Source: a virus
Lineage: Duplodnaviria > Heunggongvirae > Uroviricota > Caudoviricetes
Virus record (IMG/VR): IMGVR_UViG_2693429524_000017
Location: 1-20,091 of that record
Reading direction: 5' to 3' (one strand)
DNA: 20,091 nucleotides
Shown here: positions 10,847-18,172 of the stretch, in pieces
How positions within the stretch are numbered: position 1 is the first letter of the stretch
Layout: each line of letters begins with the position of its first letter
Program-made: the position numbers and the translations under genes
Notes under the pieces: model-generated
Told to the model about the DNA's origin: nothing
Seen by the model: the letters and a program-made list of their open reading frames with translations, nothing else
Database searches by the model: none

Positions 10847-12253
10847 ATGGCTACTTGGCAAGGAACAAACGGCGGATTGTTGGCTGGTATCGGCGGCGTC
10901 AACTCAAACGCTCCGAGCGTAAATGACATCGGCAATACGCTTCAGCTTATCAGGCAGAACAATGATATTGAGCGTTCAGGCGCTAACAATGTTGGGCTGA
11001 CTGCTTTGCAAGGCCTTTCAGGTATTGCGGGGGTGTTTCAGCAGGAAAAGCAGGCTCAGCGGCAGAAAGAATTTCAGCAGGCATACGCTAATGCTTATGC
11101 GTCTGGTGATCGCGGTGCTTTGCGTCAGTTGGCTACTCAATATCCAGACCAGATTGAATCCGTTCGTAAAGGCATGGGATTCATTGATGAAGACCAGCGT
11201 AATTCTATCGGCACATTAGCGGCTGGCGCACGCCTTGCGTCATCGTCTCCAGAAGCAATGCAATCATGGCTGCAAAACAACGCCAAGGAACTGACTCGCG
11301 TCGGTGTTGACCCTAACAGCGTTGCTCAGATGTATCAGCAAAACCCTTCAGGATTTGGTGAGTTTGTTGATCACCTTGGGATGGCTGCTCTCGGTCCGAT
11401 TGATTACTTCAATGTTCAGGACAAGATGGCTGGTCGTGAAATTGACCGAGGCAGGCTGGCAGAGACAATCCGCAGCAATCAGGCTGGTGAAGCACTTCAG
11501 GCGAGAGGGCAAAACCTTTCCTATCAGTCAGCAATGACTGGGCACAATATCGCAGCACAACGCTTGGCTCTGGATCAGCAAGAGTTCGGGTTTAAGATGC
11601 AGCAAGCGCAGGAAAAGGCTCAGCAGTTGATTAGTGAAGCACCTAAGCTGTCAGTAAACATGGAAAAAGCCATCGAGACGGCTGTAAACAATGCCACAGC
11701 ATCATCAAACTCAGCCAATTCTATGAGTGCGCTTGCTCAACAGTTCAGAGCAGAAAAACCAACGACAGGTTTGTTCGGTAACGCACAGAACATGTTCGCA
11801 AAACTTACCGGAAGCGATACGACATTGCGTGATTTGCGCATTCGCCAAAATGCCCTTGTTAACAGTCAGGTTCTTAAATTCCTACCTCCCGGCCCCGCAA
11901 CGGATAAAGACGTTGAGATCGTTCGTCAGGGTGCACCAACTGACATGGATAACCCTGAGACGGTCGCAAGATGGCTTGATGCTATGGCAAACCTTGAGCG
12001 ACGAAACGCGCAGTTTAATGAGTTTAAAGCCGAGTGGATGAGCGCGAATGGCAACCCTGGACAATCGCGTAATGGCGGTCAGATATTGGGGTTGGATGTT
12101 AAAAAAGGTGAATCATTGGGGAGTGCCGTTAAGCGGTATATGTCAATGAATACTGACGCAGCGCCAGCACAAGATTCGACACCTTCAGGTGAACCACGGA
12201 ATCAGGTTGGATCATATACCTCAAAATCAGGCATTCAATTTACGGTGGAATGA
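10847..12253 (+). CDS. Ejection protein gp20-like, 468 aa
   Basis: Position and size match P22 gp20 (recalled as ~471 aa); AAGGGG RBS. Confidence 0.8.
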   Translation: MATWQGTNGGLLAGIGGVNSNAPSVNDIGNTLQLIRQNNDIERSGANNVGLTALQGLSGIAGVFQQEKQAQRQKEFQQAYANAYASGDRGALRQLATQYPDQIESVRKGMGFIDEDQRNSIGTLAAGARLASSSPEAMQSWLQNNAKELTRVGVDPNSVAQMYQQNPSGFGEFVDHLGMAALGPIDYFNVQDKMAGREIDRGRLAETIRSNQAGEALQARGQNLSYQSAMTGHNIAAQRLALDQQEFGFKMQQAQEKAQQLISEAPKLSVNMEKAIETAVNNATASSNSANSMSALAQQFRAEKPTTGLFGNAQNMFAKLTGSDTTLRDLRIRQNALVNSQVLKFLPPGPATDKDVEIVRQGAPTDMDNPETVARWLDAMANLERRNAQFNEFKAEWMSANGNPGQSRNGGQILGLDVKKGESLGSAVKRYMSMNTDAAPAQDSTPSGEPRNQVGSYTSKSGIQFTVE

Positions 12254-14130
12254 TGAAAGTAACTGCAAACGGTAAGACATTTACCTTCCCTGATGGTACG
12301 AGCACGGAAGATATTGGCACCGCCATTGATGAGTATTTTGCTGGTCAGGCTGTTCAGCAACAAACAGTTAATCAGGCCAATAATGCACCAACACGGGAAG
12401 AACCATCATTAATGCAACAAGCTGGCGATTGGCTCACTGGTGGTCAAAGTGCAGGGCAAATTGCAGAACAGGCTGGTCGTGGTCTGGTAAACATACCATT
12501 CGACGTATTACAGGGCGGCGCAAGCCTGATTAATGCAATCAGCCAGGGGCTTGGTGGCCCCAAGGTTTTGGATGATGTTTATCGTCCAGTCGATCGACCG
12601 ACAGACCCTTACGCGCAAGCTGGTGAAACAATTGGTGGGTATCTCCTGCCAATTGGCACAGCGGCAAAAGCTGCTGGAGCGCCAGCAAAGCTCGCTGGAG
12701 ATATCGGTTCCGCAGGAAACATGATTGCAGGTTCTCTTGCTGATGCTGCAAATCAGGAGGGCGATTTCGCACAAAATGCAGCTAAAAATGCCGGAGTTAA
12801 CCTTGCCGCTCAGGGGGTTCTTTCCGCAGCAGCAAAGGGAATAGGGCGTGGAATTACTGCTGTTCGTGGCGAAATATCACCAGCAGATCAGCAATTGCTC
12901 AAGCGTGCCGCTGCGGCAGATGTACCAGTTATGACATCGGATGTAGTTTCTCCAAAAACAAAACTTGGCAATCAACTGCAGGGTTACTCAGAAGGAGTCA
13001 TAGCTGGTACTGGACCAATGAGAGCCGCACAGCAGGATGCCAGAACCAAGCTTGTTAATCGCTTCACCGAAAAATACGGCGACTACGATCCATCTGTAGT
13101 CGTTGATAGTCTAAAGTCAGGCGTTGCAAGGGAAAAATCGTTAGCCAAGTCAAAACTAAACAGCCTGTCAGGAAGAATGGTTGGAAAGCCAGTTGATACA
13201 AGTGGCGCCATAAGAGCTATCGACGGAGCAGTAAACGAACTTGGGAAACTTAAAGGTGTTTCTGACACCCAGACCATTTCTGCGCTTAATGATTATAAGA
13301 ATGCCATTCAGGAGATAACAAATGGAGATGATGCCTTTGAGTTACTTGATAAGCTGAGAACTCAGTTCCGCATTGACGTAAAAGGCGATCGTACAGTTCT
13401 GCCATCAATGTCGCAAACAATGGTCGACAGGGTCTATAACTCGCTAACCAATAGCCTTAGTAAATCTATAGCGAAAGGACTTAGCCCAAAAGATGCTTCA
13501 GCATGGAGAGCGGGAAAAGCTGATTATGCAAAAATGGCAACACATGCAACTCAAACGCGCCTTAAAAACGTTCTAAACAAAGGAGATTTAACTCCCGAGG
13601 CTGTAAATACCATTGTGTATGGACAATATGGGTCAGATATAGCTCGATTGTACGGGAAACTCGATCAAAAAGGTAAAGACATGCTAAGGGCGGCATATAT
13701 CAGCAAAATAGCTGACAAGGTAGGTGACAGCCCTCAGAAAATGATGACCGAGCTTGGCAAGCTGCAAAAACAAGCAAATGGTCAGGTGTTTAAAACTGTA
13801 TTTGGTGGGAAGAACGGAAAAGAGATAGAGGGGATGTTATCTATTCTCGATGCTACCAAAAGAGCATCTGAGGCTAATGTTGTGACGAAGACTGGCATGA
13901 CACTCGCGCCTTTGGTAAGGGTTATTGGTAACCTAAAAACCGGAGGCGCGCTATTGGCTGGGGAAACAGGGATTGGCCTTATGTCGAGGGTTTATGAAAG
14001 CCCTATGACCAGGAATGCGCTCTTACGTCTGGCAAACACCAAAGCAGGAACGCCAGCCTATGAAAGAGCATTAAGTAACGCTGCAAATGCCATCAGACCG
14101 CTGCTTGCCACTGAGGCAACACAGCAGTAA
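12250..14130 (+). CDS. Ejection protein gp16-like, 626 aa
   Basis: Start overlaps the gp20 stop (ATGATG); last gene of the conserved ejection-protein block; Ala/Gly-rich. Confidence 0.8.
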   Translation: MMKVTANGKTFTFPDGTSTEDIGTAIDEYFAGQAVQQQTVNQANNAPTREEPSLMQQAGDWLTGGQSAGQIAEQAGRGLVNIPFDVLQGGASLINAISQGLGGPKVLDDVYRPVDRPTDPYAQAGETIGGYLLPIGTAAKAAGAPAKLAGDIGSAGNMIAGSLADAANQEGDFAQNAAKNAGVNLAAQGVLSAAAKGIGRGITAVRGEISPADQQLLKRAAAADVPVMTSDVVSPKTKLGNQLQGYSEGVIAGTGPMRAAQQDARTKLVNRFTEKYGDYDPSVVVDSLKSGVAREKSLAKSKLNSLSGRMVGKPVDTSGAIRAIDGAVNELGKLKGVSDTQTISALNDYKNAIQEITNGDDAFELLDKLRTQFRIDVKGDRTVLPSMSQTMVDRVYNSLTNSLSKSIAKGLSPKDASAWRAGKADYAKMATHATQTRLKNVLNKGDLTPEAVNTIVYGQYGSDIARLYGKLDQKGKDMLRAAYISKIADKVGDSPQKMMTELGKLQKQANGQVFKTVFGGKNGKEIEGMLSILDATKRASEANVVTKTGMTLAPLVRVIGNLKTGGALLAGETGIGLMSRVYESPMTRNALLRLANTKAGTPAYERALSNAANAIRPLLATEATQQ

Positions 14131-14154: not shown

Positions 14155-14544
14155 CTAACATTTTCTTTTTACTTTCCCAACAAAAGCTTTGGTTGAATCC
14201 ATATTTCCATAACCGGAAATGGTTTTTGACATTAAAACTGTTCCAGTAGGATGTATTACCCATGAGTCGATAACGCGTTGAGTTTCGCCATTTGCGCCGA
14301 TTCCTATGATGGAGTTTTTAGACAATGCTTTGTAAGCCATGCCGCCCGCATCTGTCCCAGAATATGTGATGCTGGCATCTTCACCGCTTGTCTTAATGAT
14401 GAATGTTCCACTAAAACCATCTTCTTCCGGATGGAAATTATTTCGTTCTGAATAGCTTATTCCGCGCATATCTCCAACGACCCAGCACTCTGCTGTAGCC
14501 CCAAAAGATATGAATAAGAACATAGCAGCAAGAAATTGCTTCAC
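14155..14544 (-). CDS. Exported hypothetical protein with an N-terminal signal peptide, 129 aa (accessory gene)
   Basis: GTG start with a perfect AGGAGG 5 nt upstream (reverse complement of 14550-14555). N-terminus MKQFLAAMFLFISFGATA-E is a signal peptide with an AXA-type cleavage site and no lipobox. Opposite strand to the late operon and AT-rich. Confidence 0.65.
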   Translation of the reverse strand: MKQFLAAMFLFISFGATAECWVVGDMRGISYSERNNFHPEEDGFSGTFIIKTSGEDASITYSGTDAGGMAYKALSKNSIIGIGANGETQRVIDSWVIHPTGTVLMSKTISGYGNMDSTKAFVGKVKRKC

Positions 14545-14857: not shown

Positions 14858-14918
14858 ATTAAATGACATTTGACATAGTTGGATACTTAGCTGCGGCTAT
14901 CAAGATGGAGGTATGTTT

Positions 14919-15362
14919 ATGCTCACTTGTTTTGATGTCGCCGACTACTTCTTGGCGCATTGCGATGAAGAAAGTGGCGACATTATCTCTAACCTAAAAA
15001 TTCAGAAGTTGACGTATTATGCCCAAGGGTTTTCTCTGGTTCTTCTGGGTAAGCCGCTATTTAATGAGAAAATTGAAGCCTGGATGCATGGGCCAGTAGT
15101 TCCTGAATTGTATCGTAAATATAGGGACTGTGGTAACGGCGCTTTACCTGCGCCAGAAAACTTTGACGCTAAAAAATTCAGTGAAGATGAAATTGAATTG
15201 CTGGATGAGGTGTATAAAGTTTATGGTCAGTTTTCTGCCTGGAAACTGCGCAATATGACTCACGAAGAGCAGCCATGGAAAGATGCTTACATTGAGGGTG
15301 CGGTTAGCCAAGAAATCACGCTTGATTCTATGAAAGGTTTTTTCAAAACGTTAATTAACTGA
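14919..15362 (+). CDS. Panacea (DUF4065, COG3600 GepA/SocA-like) domain protein; putative antitoxin or immunity component, about 147 aa
   Basis: Translation contains NLKIQKLTYYAQGFSLVLLGKPLFNEKIEAWMHGPVVPELYRKY, which I recognise as the Panacea core pattern. GGAGG at 14907-14911 favours the ATG at 14919 over the track start at 14913. Stop is 5 nt before the next ORF. Confidence 0.6.
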   Translation: MLTCFDVADYFLAHCDEESGDIISNLKIQKLTYYAQGFSLVLLGKPLFNEKIEAWMHGPVVPELYRKYRDCGNGALPAPENFDAKKFSEDEIELLDEVYKVYGQFSAWKLRNMTHEEQPWKDAYIEGAVSQEITLDSMKGFFKTLIN

Positions 15363-15367
15363 CGTGT

Positions 15368-15790
15368 ATGTCTAGAGTTAAGGGAAGAATAAAACAGAGG
15401 GATAAAGAGAGCTCTGCTACTGTTGGCCTCTCTATCCATCACGAATCTCATGATGTAGACAAAAGTCCGCCTGTATTTTCTCTTAGATACCTACAAAAGG
15501 GGTATTGCCTAGATTGCTGCCAAAAGCATGAAAAGGCAGCATTTGCAGATAGGCTGTTCAGGTTAAGTCAGATGTCATGGGATGAGATACGAAAATCTGA
15601 TAAACACGGGCTTGGGACGGAAAAAATTGCCAGAAACGCGATAAAGGCTCCGATTCCTAAGCATGTTACTCAAGATGTGGATTTCATTGCGTTCAGATTT
15701 TGCTCTAAGGCACCTATGGTTGGTTATAAGATAGGAGCCACTTTTTATGTCTTATGGCTCGACAGGGAGTTCAAGCTATACAAGCACTAA
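15368..15790 (+). CDS. Hypothetical basic protein, 140 aa; candidate toxin/effector partner of the upstream Panacea-domain protein
   Basis: ATG 5 nt after the upstream stop with no independent Shine-Dalgarno, so probably translationally coupled. K/R/H-rich, with a C-terminal segment VDFIAFRFCSKAPMVGYKIGATFYVLWLDREFKLYKH. I cannot assign a family. Followed directly by an intrinsic terminator. Confidence 0.55.
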   Translation: MSRVKGRIKQRDKESSATVGLSIHHESHDVDKSPPVFSLRYLQKGYCLDCCQKHEKAAFADRLFRLSQMSWDEIRKSDKHGLGTEKIARNAIKAPIPKHVTQDVDFIAFRFCSKAPMVGYKIGATFYVLWLDREFKLYKH

Positions 15791-15791
15791 T

Positions 15792-15817
15792 AAAACCCAC
15801 CGTCAGGTGGGTTTTTT
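15792..15817. terminator. Intrinsic terminator, probably bidirectional, between the convergent genes 15368-15790 (+) and 15834-16037 (-)
   Basis: CCCACC-GTCA-GGTGGG hairpin flanked by AAAA upstream and TTTTTT downstream, giving a U-tract in either orientation. Confidence 0.75.
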
Positions 15818-15833
15818 GTTGGAGATAAAATGG

Positions 15834-16037
15834 TTAACCAAATCGATCCTTAAAGCGCCTATCGCTGTTGCGTCTCTCCATTTTACTGTTGCAGTACGGA
15901 CAAAGATGCTGTTTCTTTCCATCGATAGTCCATGTGAAGTACTTTTTCTTAAATCCAGCACCACAGATATCGCAACTTCTTGGTTTAAACATACTGGCTA
16001 TGAAGATAAGAACAACAAATCCTATGATCCATTCCAT
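15834..16037 (-). CDS. Small membrane-anchored protein with a CxxC...CxxC zinc-ribbon motif, 67 aa
   Basis: N-terminal hydrophobic helix WIIGFVVLIFIASMF, then CDIC...CPYC and a basic tail. AT-rich; ends at the bidirectional terminator. Confidence 0.5.
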   Translation of the reverse strand: MEWIIGFVVLIFIASMFKPRSCDICGAGFKKKYFTWTIDGKKQHLCPYCNSKMERRNSDRRFKDRFG

Positions 16038-16178
16038 ATCATGTACCTGTTTTAACTTTATTTTTTGATTTTTAGGGATTAATCAGAAACTTTATCTTGC
16101 GATTAAGCAAAGCTACTAGCTAACAAAAGAGTGCGTATACAATCAATCGTTTCACATCAACCTCAACAAGGAGAAATC

Positions 16179-16364
16179 ATGACCATAGAAGAACGCCTGA
16201 ACAACATTGAGTTGAACCAAACCCTGCTTGACCAGCGACTTTCAGATCTTGAGCTTAAAGATCTTGATGCGCAAATATCAGAAGCAGAAGCCAAGCTCTC
16301 CAGCTTAAACCACCGCAAGAAGCAAATCCGCAACAGAATTACTCAGGGACGCGGAAGCTGTTGA
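16179..16364 (+). CDS. Small coiled-coil hypothetical protein, about 61 aa
   Basis: ATG at 16179 with AAGGAG 5 nt upstream. Heptad-like leucine pattern. Its 3' end overlaps the convergent minus-strand ORF by 26 nt. Confidence 0.45.
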   Translation: MTIEERLNNIELNQTLLDQRLSDLELKDLDAQISEAEAKLSSLNHRKKQIRNRITQGRGSC

Positions 16365-16548
16365 GGTGGGATGCTAGGTCTCTATCGTTAAAATCAAGGC
16401 TGCTAATCATTTCATTGTAAATGGCGTTTTTATCTTCCATTGGCAGTCTTGAGTAAACCAGGCACAGAGCATATTTCAGGGAGTTTAGCTCCTTCTCTAG
16501 CTCTTCCTTGCTTGACGTTGTTGACTTAATAAACTGTTTTTTGTTCAT
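16339..16548 (-). CDS. Small hypothetical protein co-transcribed downstream of mnt, 69 aa
   Basis: ATG overlaps the mnt stop (ATGA on the minus strand), so probably translationally coupled to mnt. No family recognised. Confidence 0.5.
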   Translation of the reverse strand: MNKKQFIKSTTSSKEELEKELNSLKYALCLVYSRLPMEDKNAIYNEMISSLDFNDRDLASHLNSFRVPE

Positions 16549-16796
16549 TTTTCATCCTTACCATACATGGTCTTTAGCGCCTCAACATCGTGTTCAAGAT
16601 CTATCAATCGTGATGCTATAGTTGCAAGGTCTAGTGCTTGAATGTGTTTATTTTTTTCGGTCCACGCTTCAAGTGCCGCGACCATCTCAGCATTTAATGA
16701 ACGAGAATTAGCCTCAGCCAGTTCAATAAGACGTTCCTTTATCTCTACAGGAAGCCTCAGATTCACTTGAGGGTTTTTGTACTTACGATCAGACAT
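16545..16796 (-). CDS. mnt: Mnt-like ribbon-helix-helix repressor, 83 aa
   Basis: N-terminal RHH motif NLRLPVEIKERLIELAEANSRSLNAEMVAAL aligns with my recollection of P22 Mnt; same length; transcribed divergently from arc/ant as in P22 immI. Confidence 0.8.
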   Translation of the reverse strand: MSDRKYKNPQVNLRLPVEIKERLIELAEANSRSLNAEMVAALEAWTEKNKHIQALDLATIASRLIDLEHDVEALKTMYGKDEK

Positions 16797-16901: not shown

Positions 16902-17042
16902 ATGAAGGTAAAAACACTGCGTATGCCAGAGAAGCTAGAAAAAATTCTTGAAGAAAAAGCAAAGGAAGAGTGTCGCTCATTCAGCGCAGAAGTAATTAAA
17001 CGGGTGATGGACAGCCTGAAGAGAGAGGGGATAACTGTATGA
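16902..17042 (+). CDS. arc: Arc-like ribbon-helix-helix repressor, 46 aa (absent from the ORF track because it is under 60 aa)
   Basis: ATG at 16902 with GGAGGA upstream. Translation MKVKTLRMPEKLEKILEEKAKEECRSFSAEVIKRVMDSLKREGITV aligns with P22 Arc as I recall it, notably RSFSAEVIKRVMDSLKREG against RSVNSEIYQRVMESFKKEG. Confidence 0.8.
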   Translation: MKVKTLRMPEKLEKILEEKAKEECRSFSAEVIKRVMDSLKREGITV

Positions 17043-17242
17043 GTAAAGAATGTTGTTTCTGCGGCATTAGCGAATCAGACGCTGATCAAACATACATTTA
17101 CTCTAAAGAAACAGGTCGGATGCTGTGTAGTGACTGCGTGTTGGACATCATAAGATACAAGCATCTTGGATGTTCTGCCAGCATTAGCAATATAGGTGAA
17201 GTATATGAAGGGAAAGATATAACTGATAGAGCAGAAAGTTGA
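17039..17242 (+). CDS. Small Cys-rich (zinc-ribbon-like) hypothetical protein, 67 aa, translationally coupled to arc
   Basis: ATG overlaps the arc TGA (ATGA). Cys cluster CCFCG...CSDC...C. Sits between arc and ant, where I recall P22 having only an intercistronic region. Confidence 0.55.
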   Translation: MSKECCFCGISESDADQTYIYSKETGRMLCSDCVLDIIRYKHLGCSASISNIGEVYEGKDITDRAES

Positions 17243-17340
17243 AGCCCCAACTGCTGGAACAGTCAGGGCTTCGGTATCGTAAAACCACACATAGGAATTA
17301 ACGACATGAAAAGTATAGCAACAGCAGTATCTACTATCAA
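17236..17340 (-). ncRNA. sar: Candidate sar-like antisense RNA locus: minus-strand promoter inside the ant 5' end, transcript running antisense across the ant RBS to a hairpin at 17241-17272
   Basis: Minus-strand -35 TTGATA (reverse complement of 17335-17340), 17-bp spacer, -10 TATACT (reverse complement of 17312-17317), placing the start near the ant ATG. An extended hairpin GAAGCCC..ACTG-CTGGAA-CAGT..GGGCTTC lies at 17241-17272. The predicted length of about 65-70 nt is similar to the P22 sar RNA as I recall it. The span includes the promoter. Confidence 0.45.
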
Positions 17341-18172
17341 TGTACCATTCCACGGCGCAGAGCTTTATGTTGTCAATCACAACGGCGAACCGTATACCCC
17401 AATGAAACCTATCGTTGAAGGCATGGGTATGGATTGGGCTTCACAGTTTACGAAAATGAAGCAGCGGTTTAAAACCTCCATTGTGAAAATCACAATGCAG
17501 CTTCCTGGTGATGAACAACGCCGTGAGATTATTTGTTTGGCACTTCGCAAACTTGCAGGTTGGCTGCAAACCATTAGCCCTAACAAAGTCCGCCCTGAAA
17601 TCCGCGACAAGGTAATCCAGTATCAGGAAGAGTGTGACGATGTGCTCTACGAATACTGGACTAAAGGTCATGTAGTTAACCCACGCAAAGCTAAAAAGGC
17701 GTTGCCGGGTAAAATTACCACTGAACAGCAGGAAGCCATTAAACAACTCGTCATGAGTCGCGGTCAGTCTCTGCCAAAAGAAAAACAGGCGAAGGCGATG
17801 ATCACCATGTGGTCGTCACTGAAATCTCATTTTGGGTGTTCATACAAAGAAATCAGCGATGAGCAGTTTACCGAAGCTCTGTCACTTGCAGCTCGTATTC
17901 CACTTGAAGGCGAGTTCATTGGCAAGTCGAAACATAATGAGATGAGTTGTTTTGATTGGAGGATGAATGTTCATAACCTGAACTCGGCGTGCATTCATCT
18001 TGATGCCATGTACAGAATATGGAGAGACGAAATGGAACCCGCTTTGCGATTGCTTGGCTCTCCGGTTGCGACCAGATTTTGCGGAAGAATTGCAGATTGC
18101 TATTCCGTAACTGCAAGCGTTAAGAAAAGTCTGGAGAATGCCGCAGGGCTGAAAGGCTTACAACCATTTTAA
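17306..18172 (+). CDS. ant: Antirepressor Ant (P22 Ant-like), 288 aa
   Basis: N-terminal segment YTPMKPIVEGMGMDWASQFTKMKQRF...ICLALRKLAGWL...YQEECDDVLYEYWTKG is typical of phage antirepressor N-domains; located after arc as in P22 immI. Confidence 0.8.
   Translation: MKSIATAVSTINVPFHGAELYVVNHNGEPYTPMKPIVEGMGMDWASQFTKMKQRFKTSIVKITMQLPGDEQRREIICLALRKLAGWLQTISPNKVRPEIRDKVIQYQEECDDVLYEYWTKGHVVNPRKAKKALPGKITTEQQEAIKQLVMSRGQSLPKEKQAKAMITMWSSLKSHFGCSYKEISDEQFTEALSLAARIPLEGEFIGKSKHNEMSCFDWRMNVHNLNSACIHLDAMYRIWRDEMEPALRLLGSPVATRFCGRIADCYSVTASVKKSLENAAGLKGLQPF

Follow-up and report, generated by a model that had tools for sequence, protein, structure and literature searches.

The window, by which we mean the whole stretch of 20,091 nucleotides analysed here, is by its gene content a P22-like prophage with a complete P22-type immI region. 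Ejection proteins are encoded at 10847-14130; a gene-16-like ejection gene, placed by comparison with the P22 map, occupies positions 12250-14130, and mnt, which encodes an Arc-family RHH repressor (Pfam Arc, 3e-10), occupies 16545-16796 on the minus strand. The gene studied here lies between these two, in the interval that holds sieA in P22, which is where a sequence-only reading of this DNA had placed it. It is an entry of the ORF list on the minus strand (15834-16037; ATG at 16037-16035, TAA at 15836-15834) encoding 67 aa, and we refer to it as the mini-gene and to its product as the mini-protein. The same interval of P22 has the order 16 / sieA / orf59a-mnt / arc-ant / 9. In the window, the mini-gene is accompanied by a gene whose 129-aa product seems, as read from its sequence, to begin with a signal peptide (14155-14544, minus strand; phrog_2651); by a SocA/Panacea antitoxin gene (14913-15362, plus strand; Pfam, 2e-24) and the gene for its 140-aa partner (15368-15790, plus strand; phrog_8366, with weak NsnC and MAG6450 matches); by orf61, whose product is coiled-coil-like (16179-16364, plus strand; phrog_7586); and by orf69, the second gene of the mnt operon (16339-16548, minus strand; phrog_16466, 5.5e-51). 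The antitoxin gene and its partner, 5 nt apart, look like a PanA-type toxin–antitoxin pair sitting in the sieA interval.

The mnt gene is on the strand of the mini-gene and 508 bp upstream of it, the two being separated by orf69 and the convergent orf61; orf61 and orf69 overlap by 26 bp at their converging ends (16339-16364). The placement of orf69 between mnt and the mini-gene position recurs in Salmonella phage Emek and in Escherichia coli UMNK88. Divergent from mnt is arc (16902-17042, plus strand; Pfam). The arc stop codon is overlapped by an ORF (17039-17242, plus strand; phrog_7150) that precedes ant and encodes a second 67-aa protein, also with a CxxC...CxxC pattern of four cysteines, for which there is no TM helix and no Pfam match. 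The sar antisense RNA follows (17237-17304, minus strand; Rfam RF00262, 80.9 bits, E 1.6e-16), and a 288-aa ORF (17306-18172, plus strand) was identified as ant by its position after arc and sar. The tailspike gene runs from 18295 onwards on the plus strand.

Translation of the 67 codons gives MEWIIGFVVLIFIASMFKPRSCDICGAGFKKKYFTWTIDGKKQHLCPYCNSKMERRNSDRRFKDRFG. Residues 1-19 are the sole hydrophobic segment (Kyte-Doolittle 15-residue mean 2.68), and hydropathy together with an AlphaFold2 model computed with the family alignment (mean pLDDT 83) places an N-terminal TM helix at residues 2-17 (15987-16034, minus strand). The model has helix 2-16, a beta-hairpin with strands 34-38 and 41-45, and a second helix, 47-66. 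Two cysteine pairs, C22xxC25 and C46xxC49, are spaced as CxxC-x20-CxxC; alignments and the modelled strands delimit a putative zinc-binding core of residues 22-49 that includes the hairpin (15891-15974, minus strand), with W36 and G40-K41-K42 conserved. The basic C-terminal helix of the model, residues 47-66 (15840-15899, minus strand), carries the pattern CPxCN..M.RR.S...FK.RFG. Over the 50-residue tail, 14 K+R stand against 5 D+E, giving a computed pI of 9.9 and a net charge of +9. The single N-terminal TM helix, the four cysteines and the basic tail described in the sequence-only reading were all recovered. Its term 'zinc ribbon' applies only loosely: the two CxxC pairs are there, but every Pfam zinc-ribbon match falls below the gathering score and the predicted fold is treble-clef-like, with a knuckle at C22xxC25, a hairpin and then a helix that begins at the second CxxC. 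In this model the finger resembles a treble clef more than it does a zinc ribbon with two knuckles, and from the four cysteines we infer that it binds zinc. No positive residue precedes the TM helix and KPR follows it; the helix is presumably a signal anchor with the N-terminus out and the C-terminus in. A Shine-Dalgarno-like AGGT (16045-16048, minus strand), read from the sequence, lies 8 nt 5' of the ATG, and homologues have GGAG or GAGA in its place.

The strand of the true gene had to be settled against an existing annotation. In E. coli UMNK88, RefSeq/PGAP annotates a plus-strand ORF (15747-16055; WP_158414285.1) and not the mini-gene. We compared the mini-gene with four homologous loci (Klebsiella phage KP12, two Yersinia lineages and Edwardsiella phage Edno5) and counted 15/7/44, 12/5/43, 10/7/34 and 20/11/36 differences at the three codon positions; synonymous codon changes equalled or exceeded non-synonymous ones. 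The opposite frame is open in KP12, whereas stops interrupt it in the other three loci (both Yersinia lineages and Edno5). Because the opposite-strand frame is broken in homologues and third-position differences are in excess, we take the mini-gene as the true CDS, and this pattern of substitution marks it as a real coding sequence under purifying selection. The 102-aa plus-strand ORF was rejected: it starts within the neighbouring gene, crosses a terminator hairpin and meets stops in the homologues. The WP_158414285.1 annotation is probably a mis-call, which puts the gene of at least one genome on the wrong strand.

That hairpin, AAAACCCACC-GTCA-GGTGGGTTTT (about 15792-15819), has a T-run on the plus strand and TTTTATT on the minus strand. 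Its fold has -18.6 kcal/mol on the plus and -15.4 kcal/mol on the minus strand (z -4.2 and -3.8), values that none of 200 shuffles equalled; it was found by folding (~15792-15817), a simple terminator scan having overlooked it, and in the annotation of phage Emek the same hairpin is a rho-independent terminator. The mini-gene stop is 14 nt from the hairpin, which begins 2 nt past the stop of the convergent gene 15368-15790, bearing out the earlier proposal that the mini-gene converges on a shared terminator. The Panacea pair on the far side is replaced by other DNA in many related prophages, and the point of the swap is again the hairpin (15789/15790).

The mini-gene and 130 bp of AT-rich non-coding DNA upstream of it make up a 350-bp cassette (15818-16167, minus strand), as defined by alignment with Emek and by blastn boundaries at 15817/16168. 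Emek, which is collinear on both sides, does not have the cassette, and its DNA passes without a break from the equivalent of 15817 to that of 16168; at this left joint phage EC.P3 diverges too; and in many IMG/VR prophages homology either begins exactly at 15789/15790 and runs rightwards or stops at 15817. Because the boundaries in Emek, EC.P3 and the IMG/VR prophages coincide, we regard 15818-16167 as an insertion and the hairpin as a joint at which recombination has recurred. The full cassette occurs at >=99% identity in 32 of 5,426 complete E. coli genomes, chromosomal in all of them, and is 100% identical between the window and UMNK88. Like a moron, it comes or goes as one block when collinear relatives are compared (Emek). 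As for the promoter and terminator that a moron would bring along, its terminator is present but shared, and no sigma-70-like promoter site (>=9/12) was found in the 130 bp of cassette upstream of the mini-gene. For that reason, transcription of the window mini-gene should depend on read-through. No sequence that would make a convincing terminator was found in the DNA from orf69 to the mini-gene; the 146 bp upstream of the mini-gene are unmatched in the phage collection, and Rfam gave no match inside the cassette. Read-through from Pmnt, antisense to orf61, would be the most economical expression route. In Emek, orf61 itself has no room for a promoter, because its start is 11 nt past the terminator.

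A sceptical reading of these features is that the family is real and the window copy is silent or a decaying remnant, given that no promoter is recognisable in the cassette and that the convergent orf61 separates the mini-gene from mnt. This seems most unlikely: 11 IMG/VR prophage contigs carry an unbroken ORF of 99-100% identity, the cassette is preserved at >=99% in the 32 E. coli genomes mentioned above, a Shine-Dalgarno-like sequence and a terminator are in place, and read-through from mnt meets no terminator that would block it.

In most viral members of the family, linkage to mnt is closer than in the window. Among 42 IMG/VR contigs that encode a relative, 26 have an Mnt-like RHH gene that ends <=30 bp upstream of the relative on the same strand, with an Arc-like gene divergent and 340-510 bp away. 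In these 26, the relative is accordingly placed as an immI gene is, co-oriented with and directly downstream of mnt and divergent from arc-ant, whereas the window mini-gene is co-oriented with mnt but 508 bp distant from it. Eleven further contigs of the 42, all E. coli P22-like prophages, have mnt 500-950 bp upstream. The arrangement of mnt followed by the mini-gene was also observed in Edno5, KP12 and a Yersinia contig in which the two genes abut (L010). The partners vary greatly. The Mnt proteins beside family members are very diverse; the antirepressors nearby are of unrelated types (P22 Ant, Bro-N/ORF6N, Rha and KilA); the tail genes in the background are those of podoviruses, of myoviruses (baseplate hub, wedge) and of siphoviruses (lambda-like major tail protein, tape measure); and in E. 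coli prophages an identical mini-protein accompanies at least three Mnt types. Because its partners are so varied, the mini-gene is best described as a terminal gene of the mnt operon that is bound to no given Mnt, Ant or virion. In P22, Mnt is the lysogen-time repressor of ant. Expression of the mini-gene in the prophage state is expected because the gene sits in the operon of this repressor, and from this gene order we infer that the mini-protein is made in the lysogen together with Mnt.

Such tight, co-oriented adjacency to mnt, kept across three virion types and very divergent Mnt proteins, could suggest that the mini-protein is a functional fourth component of immI, for example one that adjusts antirepressor activity by keeping Ant, Mnt or a protease at the membrane. 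The exchangeability of the partners makes this very unlikely, as the identical protein occurs with at least three Mnt types and the family with unrelated antirepressors, and orphan copies exist without any immI. Moreover, P22 has an unrelated gene, orf59a, at the same position. Like the mini-gene, orf59a is a small ORF placed right after mnt and ahead of the mnt terminator, as the second gene of the mnt operon, but its 59-aa product is soluble and Gly/Lys/Pro-rich, with no TM helix and no cysteine. The two proteins are unrelated (profile comparison probability 0.1%).

To gauge the breadth of the family, we searched cluster databases. A word-indexed search returned 18 close clusters, every one labelled 'hypothetical', and a profile search of 1.84 billion representatives returned 297 clusters at E <=1e-3, of which 74 were at <=1e-10. 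The four-cysteine motif is kept in 140 of the 150 best representatives, and in 126 of these 140 a hydrophobic segment directly precedes it. Loss of the cysteine pairs in homologues, which the sequence-only reading had named as a result that would speak against it, was not seen: in 61 aligned members, ranging down to ~30% identity, C25, C46, C49 and S58 are invariant and C22, W36 and N50 are >=90% conserved. In the same alignment the TM segment keeps its hydrophobicity and is otherwise poorly conserved in sequence. Because the TM sequence is not conserved while the finger is, the helix is probably a mere tether. Ser58 (15864-15866) lies in the basic helix, within the motif M-E-R-R-x-S, and its invariance in the 61 sequences equals that of the zinc ligands.

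The TM-finger unit occurs in three contexts. It stands alone in proteins of 64-100 aa; it forms the C-terminus of proteins that begin with a signal peptide and continue with a periplasmic LprI/DUF1311 or Sel1 domain; or it forms the N-terminus and is followed by a second TM helix and an outside domain. In the homologues with the periplasmic domain, this domain and the signal peptide stand ahead of the same TM helix; the finger is therefore assigned to the cytoplasm, and on this comparison it faces the cytoplasm in the mini-protein. The neighbourhood of one fused homologue (P0061, LprI-TM-zinc-finger, on metagenome contig L087) contains StiP/PELOTA_1, C-C_Bond_Lyase and a ParS/MbcA-type antitoxin and resembles stress-response or defence islands.

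Curated databases gave no name to this unit. Scans of the mini-protein against Pfam, PHROG, NCBIfam and PADLOC yielded subthreshold generic zinc-finger matches at most. The best Pfam match of the query was Zn_ribbon_8 (16.8 bits against a cut-off of 34.4) and the best among relatives was zf_Tbcl_Rhp7 (26.9 bits against 27; P0015); no Pfam family matched more than 16 of the 61 relatives, and none did so above threshold. Four conserved putative ligands are present, on the knuckle and at the helix start (alignment, AlphaFold2), as expected of a zinc finger, and neither the query nor any relative scores above a gathering threshold. Matches to aMBF1 (the N-terminal finger of TIGR00270; 22.8 bits against a cut-off of 110) and to a Lar-like entry (E 0.02, subthreshold) were not accepted. 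PADLOC-DB v2 gave 0 defence families at E <=0.1, and Foldseek comparison of the model with PDB and BFVD gave nothing at E <=0.001. A profile search of PDB aligned only C2H2 arrays, each match spanning two fingers, and was judged spurious. A second database search returned 'hypothetical protein' only, plus an automatic 'aMBF1' label due to the zinc finger, and literature searches found no description of the mini-protein. Zinc-ribbon and treble-clef families (Zn_ribbon_8, DZR_2, zf_Tbcl_Rhp7 and aMBF1) share with it the CxxC...CxxC spacing and the predicted knuckle-hairpin-helix order, but none of these curated families has an obligatory preceding TM helix, whereas the mini-protein family has one. 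Taken together, these comparisons describe a new, unclassified family that is without a Pfam entry and extends far beyond phages.

In other Enterobacterales the gene also occurs away from phages. Morganella, Proteus, Photorhabdus and Enterobacter each have copies of 59-69% identity that stand as orphans at a chromosomal site which is specific to the genus and not of phage origin; Xenorhabdus, Serratia and other genera, as well as F-type plasmids, have copies too. The orphan chromosomal copies point to a cellular role unconnected with phages, and their stability in several genera argues against a purely anti-phage role. About 85-100 bp before the ATG, the Enterobacter and Lelliottia copies (L018, L021, L025, L031, L032, L034 and L037) share a conserved sequence, TGTGA-N6-TCAC(A/T), that resembles a CRP site. 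It reads TGTGAATCTGATCACA in L021 and TGTGAACATGATCACT in others, and the DNA surrounding it is variable.

These observations bear on the possibility that the mini-protein is a small regulatory membrane protein of host physiology, whose finger would bind its target and which phages and plasmids would have taken up as a fitness or lysogenic-conversion gene that has nothing to do with phage exclusion. Other small membrane proteins of bacteria modulate a transporter, a sensor kinase or a protease. The orphans occupy the same site within a genus, between housekeeping genes (ABC transporters, dxs/rbsD, GH31/MFS), the CRP-like site precedes the gene in Enterobacter and Lelliottia, and the periplasmic LprI and Sel1 domains of fused members suggest envelope-related signalling. 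Set against this are the poorly conserved TM helix, unlike that of small proteins that dock on partners within the membrane, and the strong, repeated linkage to immI modules, toxin–antitoxin loci and plasmids. In addition, no conserved neighbour gene that would identify a target was found, whether beside the chromosomal orphans or in the contexts of distant and fused members. On balance, we consider a host regulator somewhat unlikely.

The same survey linked the family to toxin–antitoxin genes. On the 5.1-kb ColE1-type Klebsiella plasmid pKC25-20651D, a homologue directly follows an RHH (TraY-like) antitoxin-RelE/ParE pair (L081, 4219-4940), and the order of RelE followed by the mini-gene also occurs in Rosenbergiella (L013 and L016). 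Expression of the two Rosenbergiella homologues should depend on terminator read-through, because a terminator-like hairpin lies ~20 nt before their ATG. Recurrence at the ends of RHH operons, whether after mnt or after an RHH antitoxin-RelE pair, is what would be expected if the mini-protein were a membrane-acting toxin, an abortive-infection effector or an addiction factor, whose TM helix would oligomerise and damage the membrane once the finger sensed a trigger or expression rose; it would do no harm as long as its place at the 3' end of an autoregulated RHH operon kept expression low. Consistent with this idea, the window mini-gene adjoins the Panacea-domain pair, and a YafO toxin gene lies near the mini-gene in two other loci (L007 and L008). 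We nevertheless rate such a toxin as quite improbable, given that orphan chromosomal copies have no antitoxin-like gene beside them, that the TM helix has no conserved oligomerisation motif, that the conserved part is the soluble finger and not the helix, and that PADLOC gave no match.

The sequence-only reading had also called the position of the mini-gene a sieA-equivalent locus. Exclusion of the SieA type acts by blocking DNA injection by P22-like phages. SieA of P22 is a multi-pass inner-membrane superinfection exclusion protein of 164 aa with its own promoter, and members of its family have ~160-200 aa and a cytoplasmic motif FxRYPxEAxxFNK (PMC10883804). With SieA the mini-protein shares the character of a prophage-encoded inner-membrane protein, the minus strand, an occurrence in some P22-like phages only and the location from the gene-16 homologue to mnt/gene 9, an interval that in the window runs from the end of the gene-16-like gene (14130) past mnt (16545-16796) to the tailspike start (18295). 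The equivalence holds for location and fails for sequence: BLASTP against P22 SieA gave E 1.3 over 9 TM residues, on which a relationship to SieA was rejected, and SieA is multi-pass, whereas the mini-protein has 67 aa, a single hydrophobic segment, four cysteines and no FxRYPxEAxxFNK. The interval also holds five more accessory ORFs, and no window ORF between 16 and mnt resembles SieA.

Small single-pass inner-membrane exclusion proteins made by a resident or early phage include T4 Imm and HK97 gp15, the latter a classic moron with its own terminator. Like the mini-protein these are short inner-membrane proteins, but no sequence or fold match was obtained in BFVD/PDB, and we know of no small phage exclusion protein of the Imm/gp15 kind with a cytoplasmic zinc finger. 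A functional analogy may be drawn with ToxR/CadC-type activators and zinc-binding anti-sigma factors, which also join a small cytoplasmic binding domain to one TM helix. The mini family differs from these in its reversed order (periplasmic part first, finger last) and its other fold, and the window mini-protein has no sensor domain at all. The mini-protein thus resembles known small prophage membrane proteins in kind, as a moron product of lysogen time in the inner membrane, and appears to be set apart from them by its cytoplasmic finger and its broad cellular family.

Our preferred reading, which we put forward tentatively and on grounds of sequence, is that the mini-protein is a binding protein tethered to the membrane, where it would hinder incoming DNA or the entry apparatus from the cytoplasmic side. 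By its predicted topology it is a bitopic inner-membrane protein, with two or three residues in the periplasm, a 16-residue signal-anchor helix, and a 50-residue, basic (net +9), presumably zinc-stabilised, treble-clef-like finger held against the cytoplasmic face of the membrane. The mini-gene would be prophage cargo (a moron), and it stands last in the mnt operon of a P22-type immI in most of the temperate phages that carry it; the window cassette would probably receive read-through from Pmnt, and the transcript would end at the shared hairpin. The TM helix would serve only as a tether, and the conserved finger and helix would form the working surface. A net charge of +9 would suit a polyanion, for instance nucleic acid or an anionic lipid, or else an acidic partner. 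At the membrane, the surface may bind a ligand that is polyanionic or cytoplasmic: incoming DNA, for example, or part of the entry or transfer apparatus, or a domain of a host membrane protein. The benefit to the lysogen or to the plasmid host would be exclusion or defence; the sequence-only reading had likewise proposed, as a guess from the architecture, a membrane-localised sensor or an exclusion factor. Inner-membrane proteins of the lysogen state typically have exclusion or conversion functions, SieA being an example (PMC10883804). Against exclusion stands the absence of similarity to any known exclusion or defence protein in the PADLOC (0 families) and SieA (E 1.3) comparisons.

Prophage accessory genes expressed in the lysogen rank among the main sources of exclusion and defence, and the immI-adjacent interval of P22-like phages is a classic site for them. 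With 67 aa, the mini-protein would be a very small candidate for a new exclusion or membrane-signalling activity. If binding of DNA or of an entry component at the membrane is correct, both the mechanism and the domain family would be new; otherwise, the mini-protein would be another small membrane protein without an assigned role. A bolder proposal, which we think unlikely, is that the TM helix and the cytoplasmic CxxC-x20-CPxCN-x7-S finger constitute a new widespread domain whose stand-alone form is an unnoticed fourth immI gene that excludes incoming phage or plasmid DNA. Exclusion would then act from the cytoplasmic side of the inner membrane, by a mechanism unlike those of SieA, Imm or receptor masking. 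What appears to be new here, as far as sequence comparison can tell, is the mini-protein family and its linkage to mnt.

Finally, the gene at 14155-14544 occupies in the window precisely the site that sieA has in P22, immediately past the gene-16 homologue and on the strand opposite to it. Its phrog_2651 product, for which the Emek annotation gives similarity to Sf6 gene 38, is a further candidate for a lysogen-expressed envelope protein.
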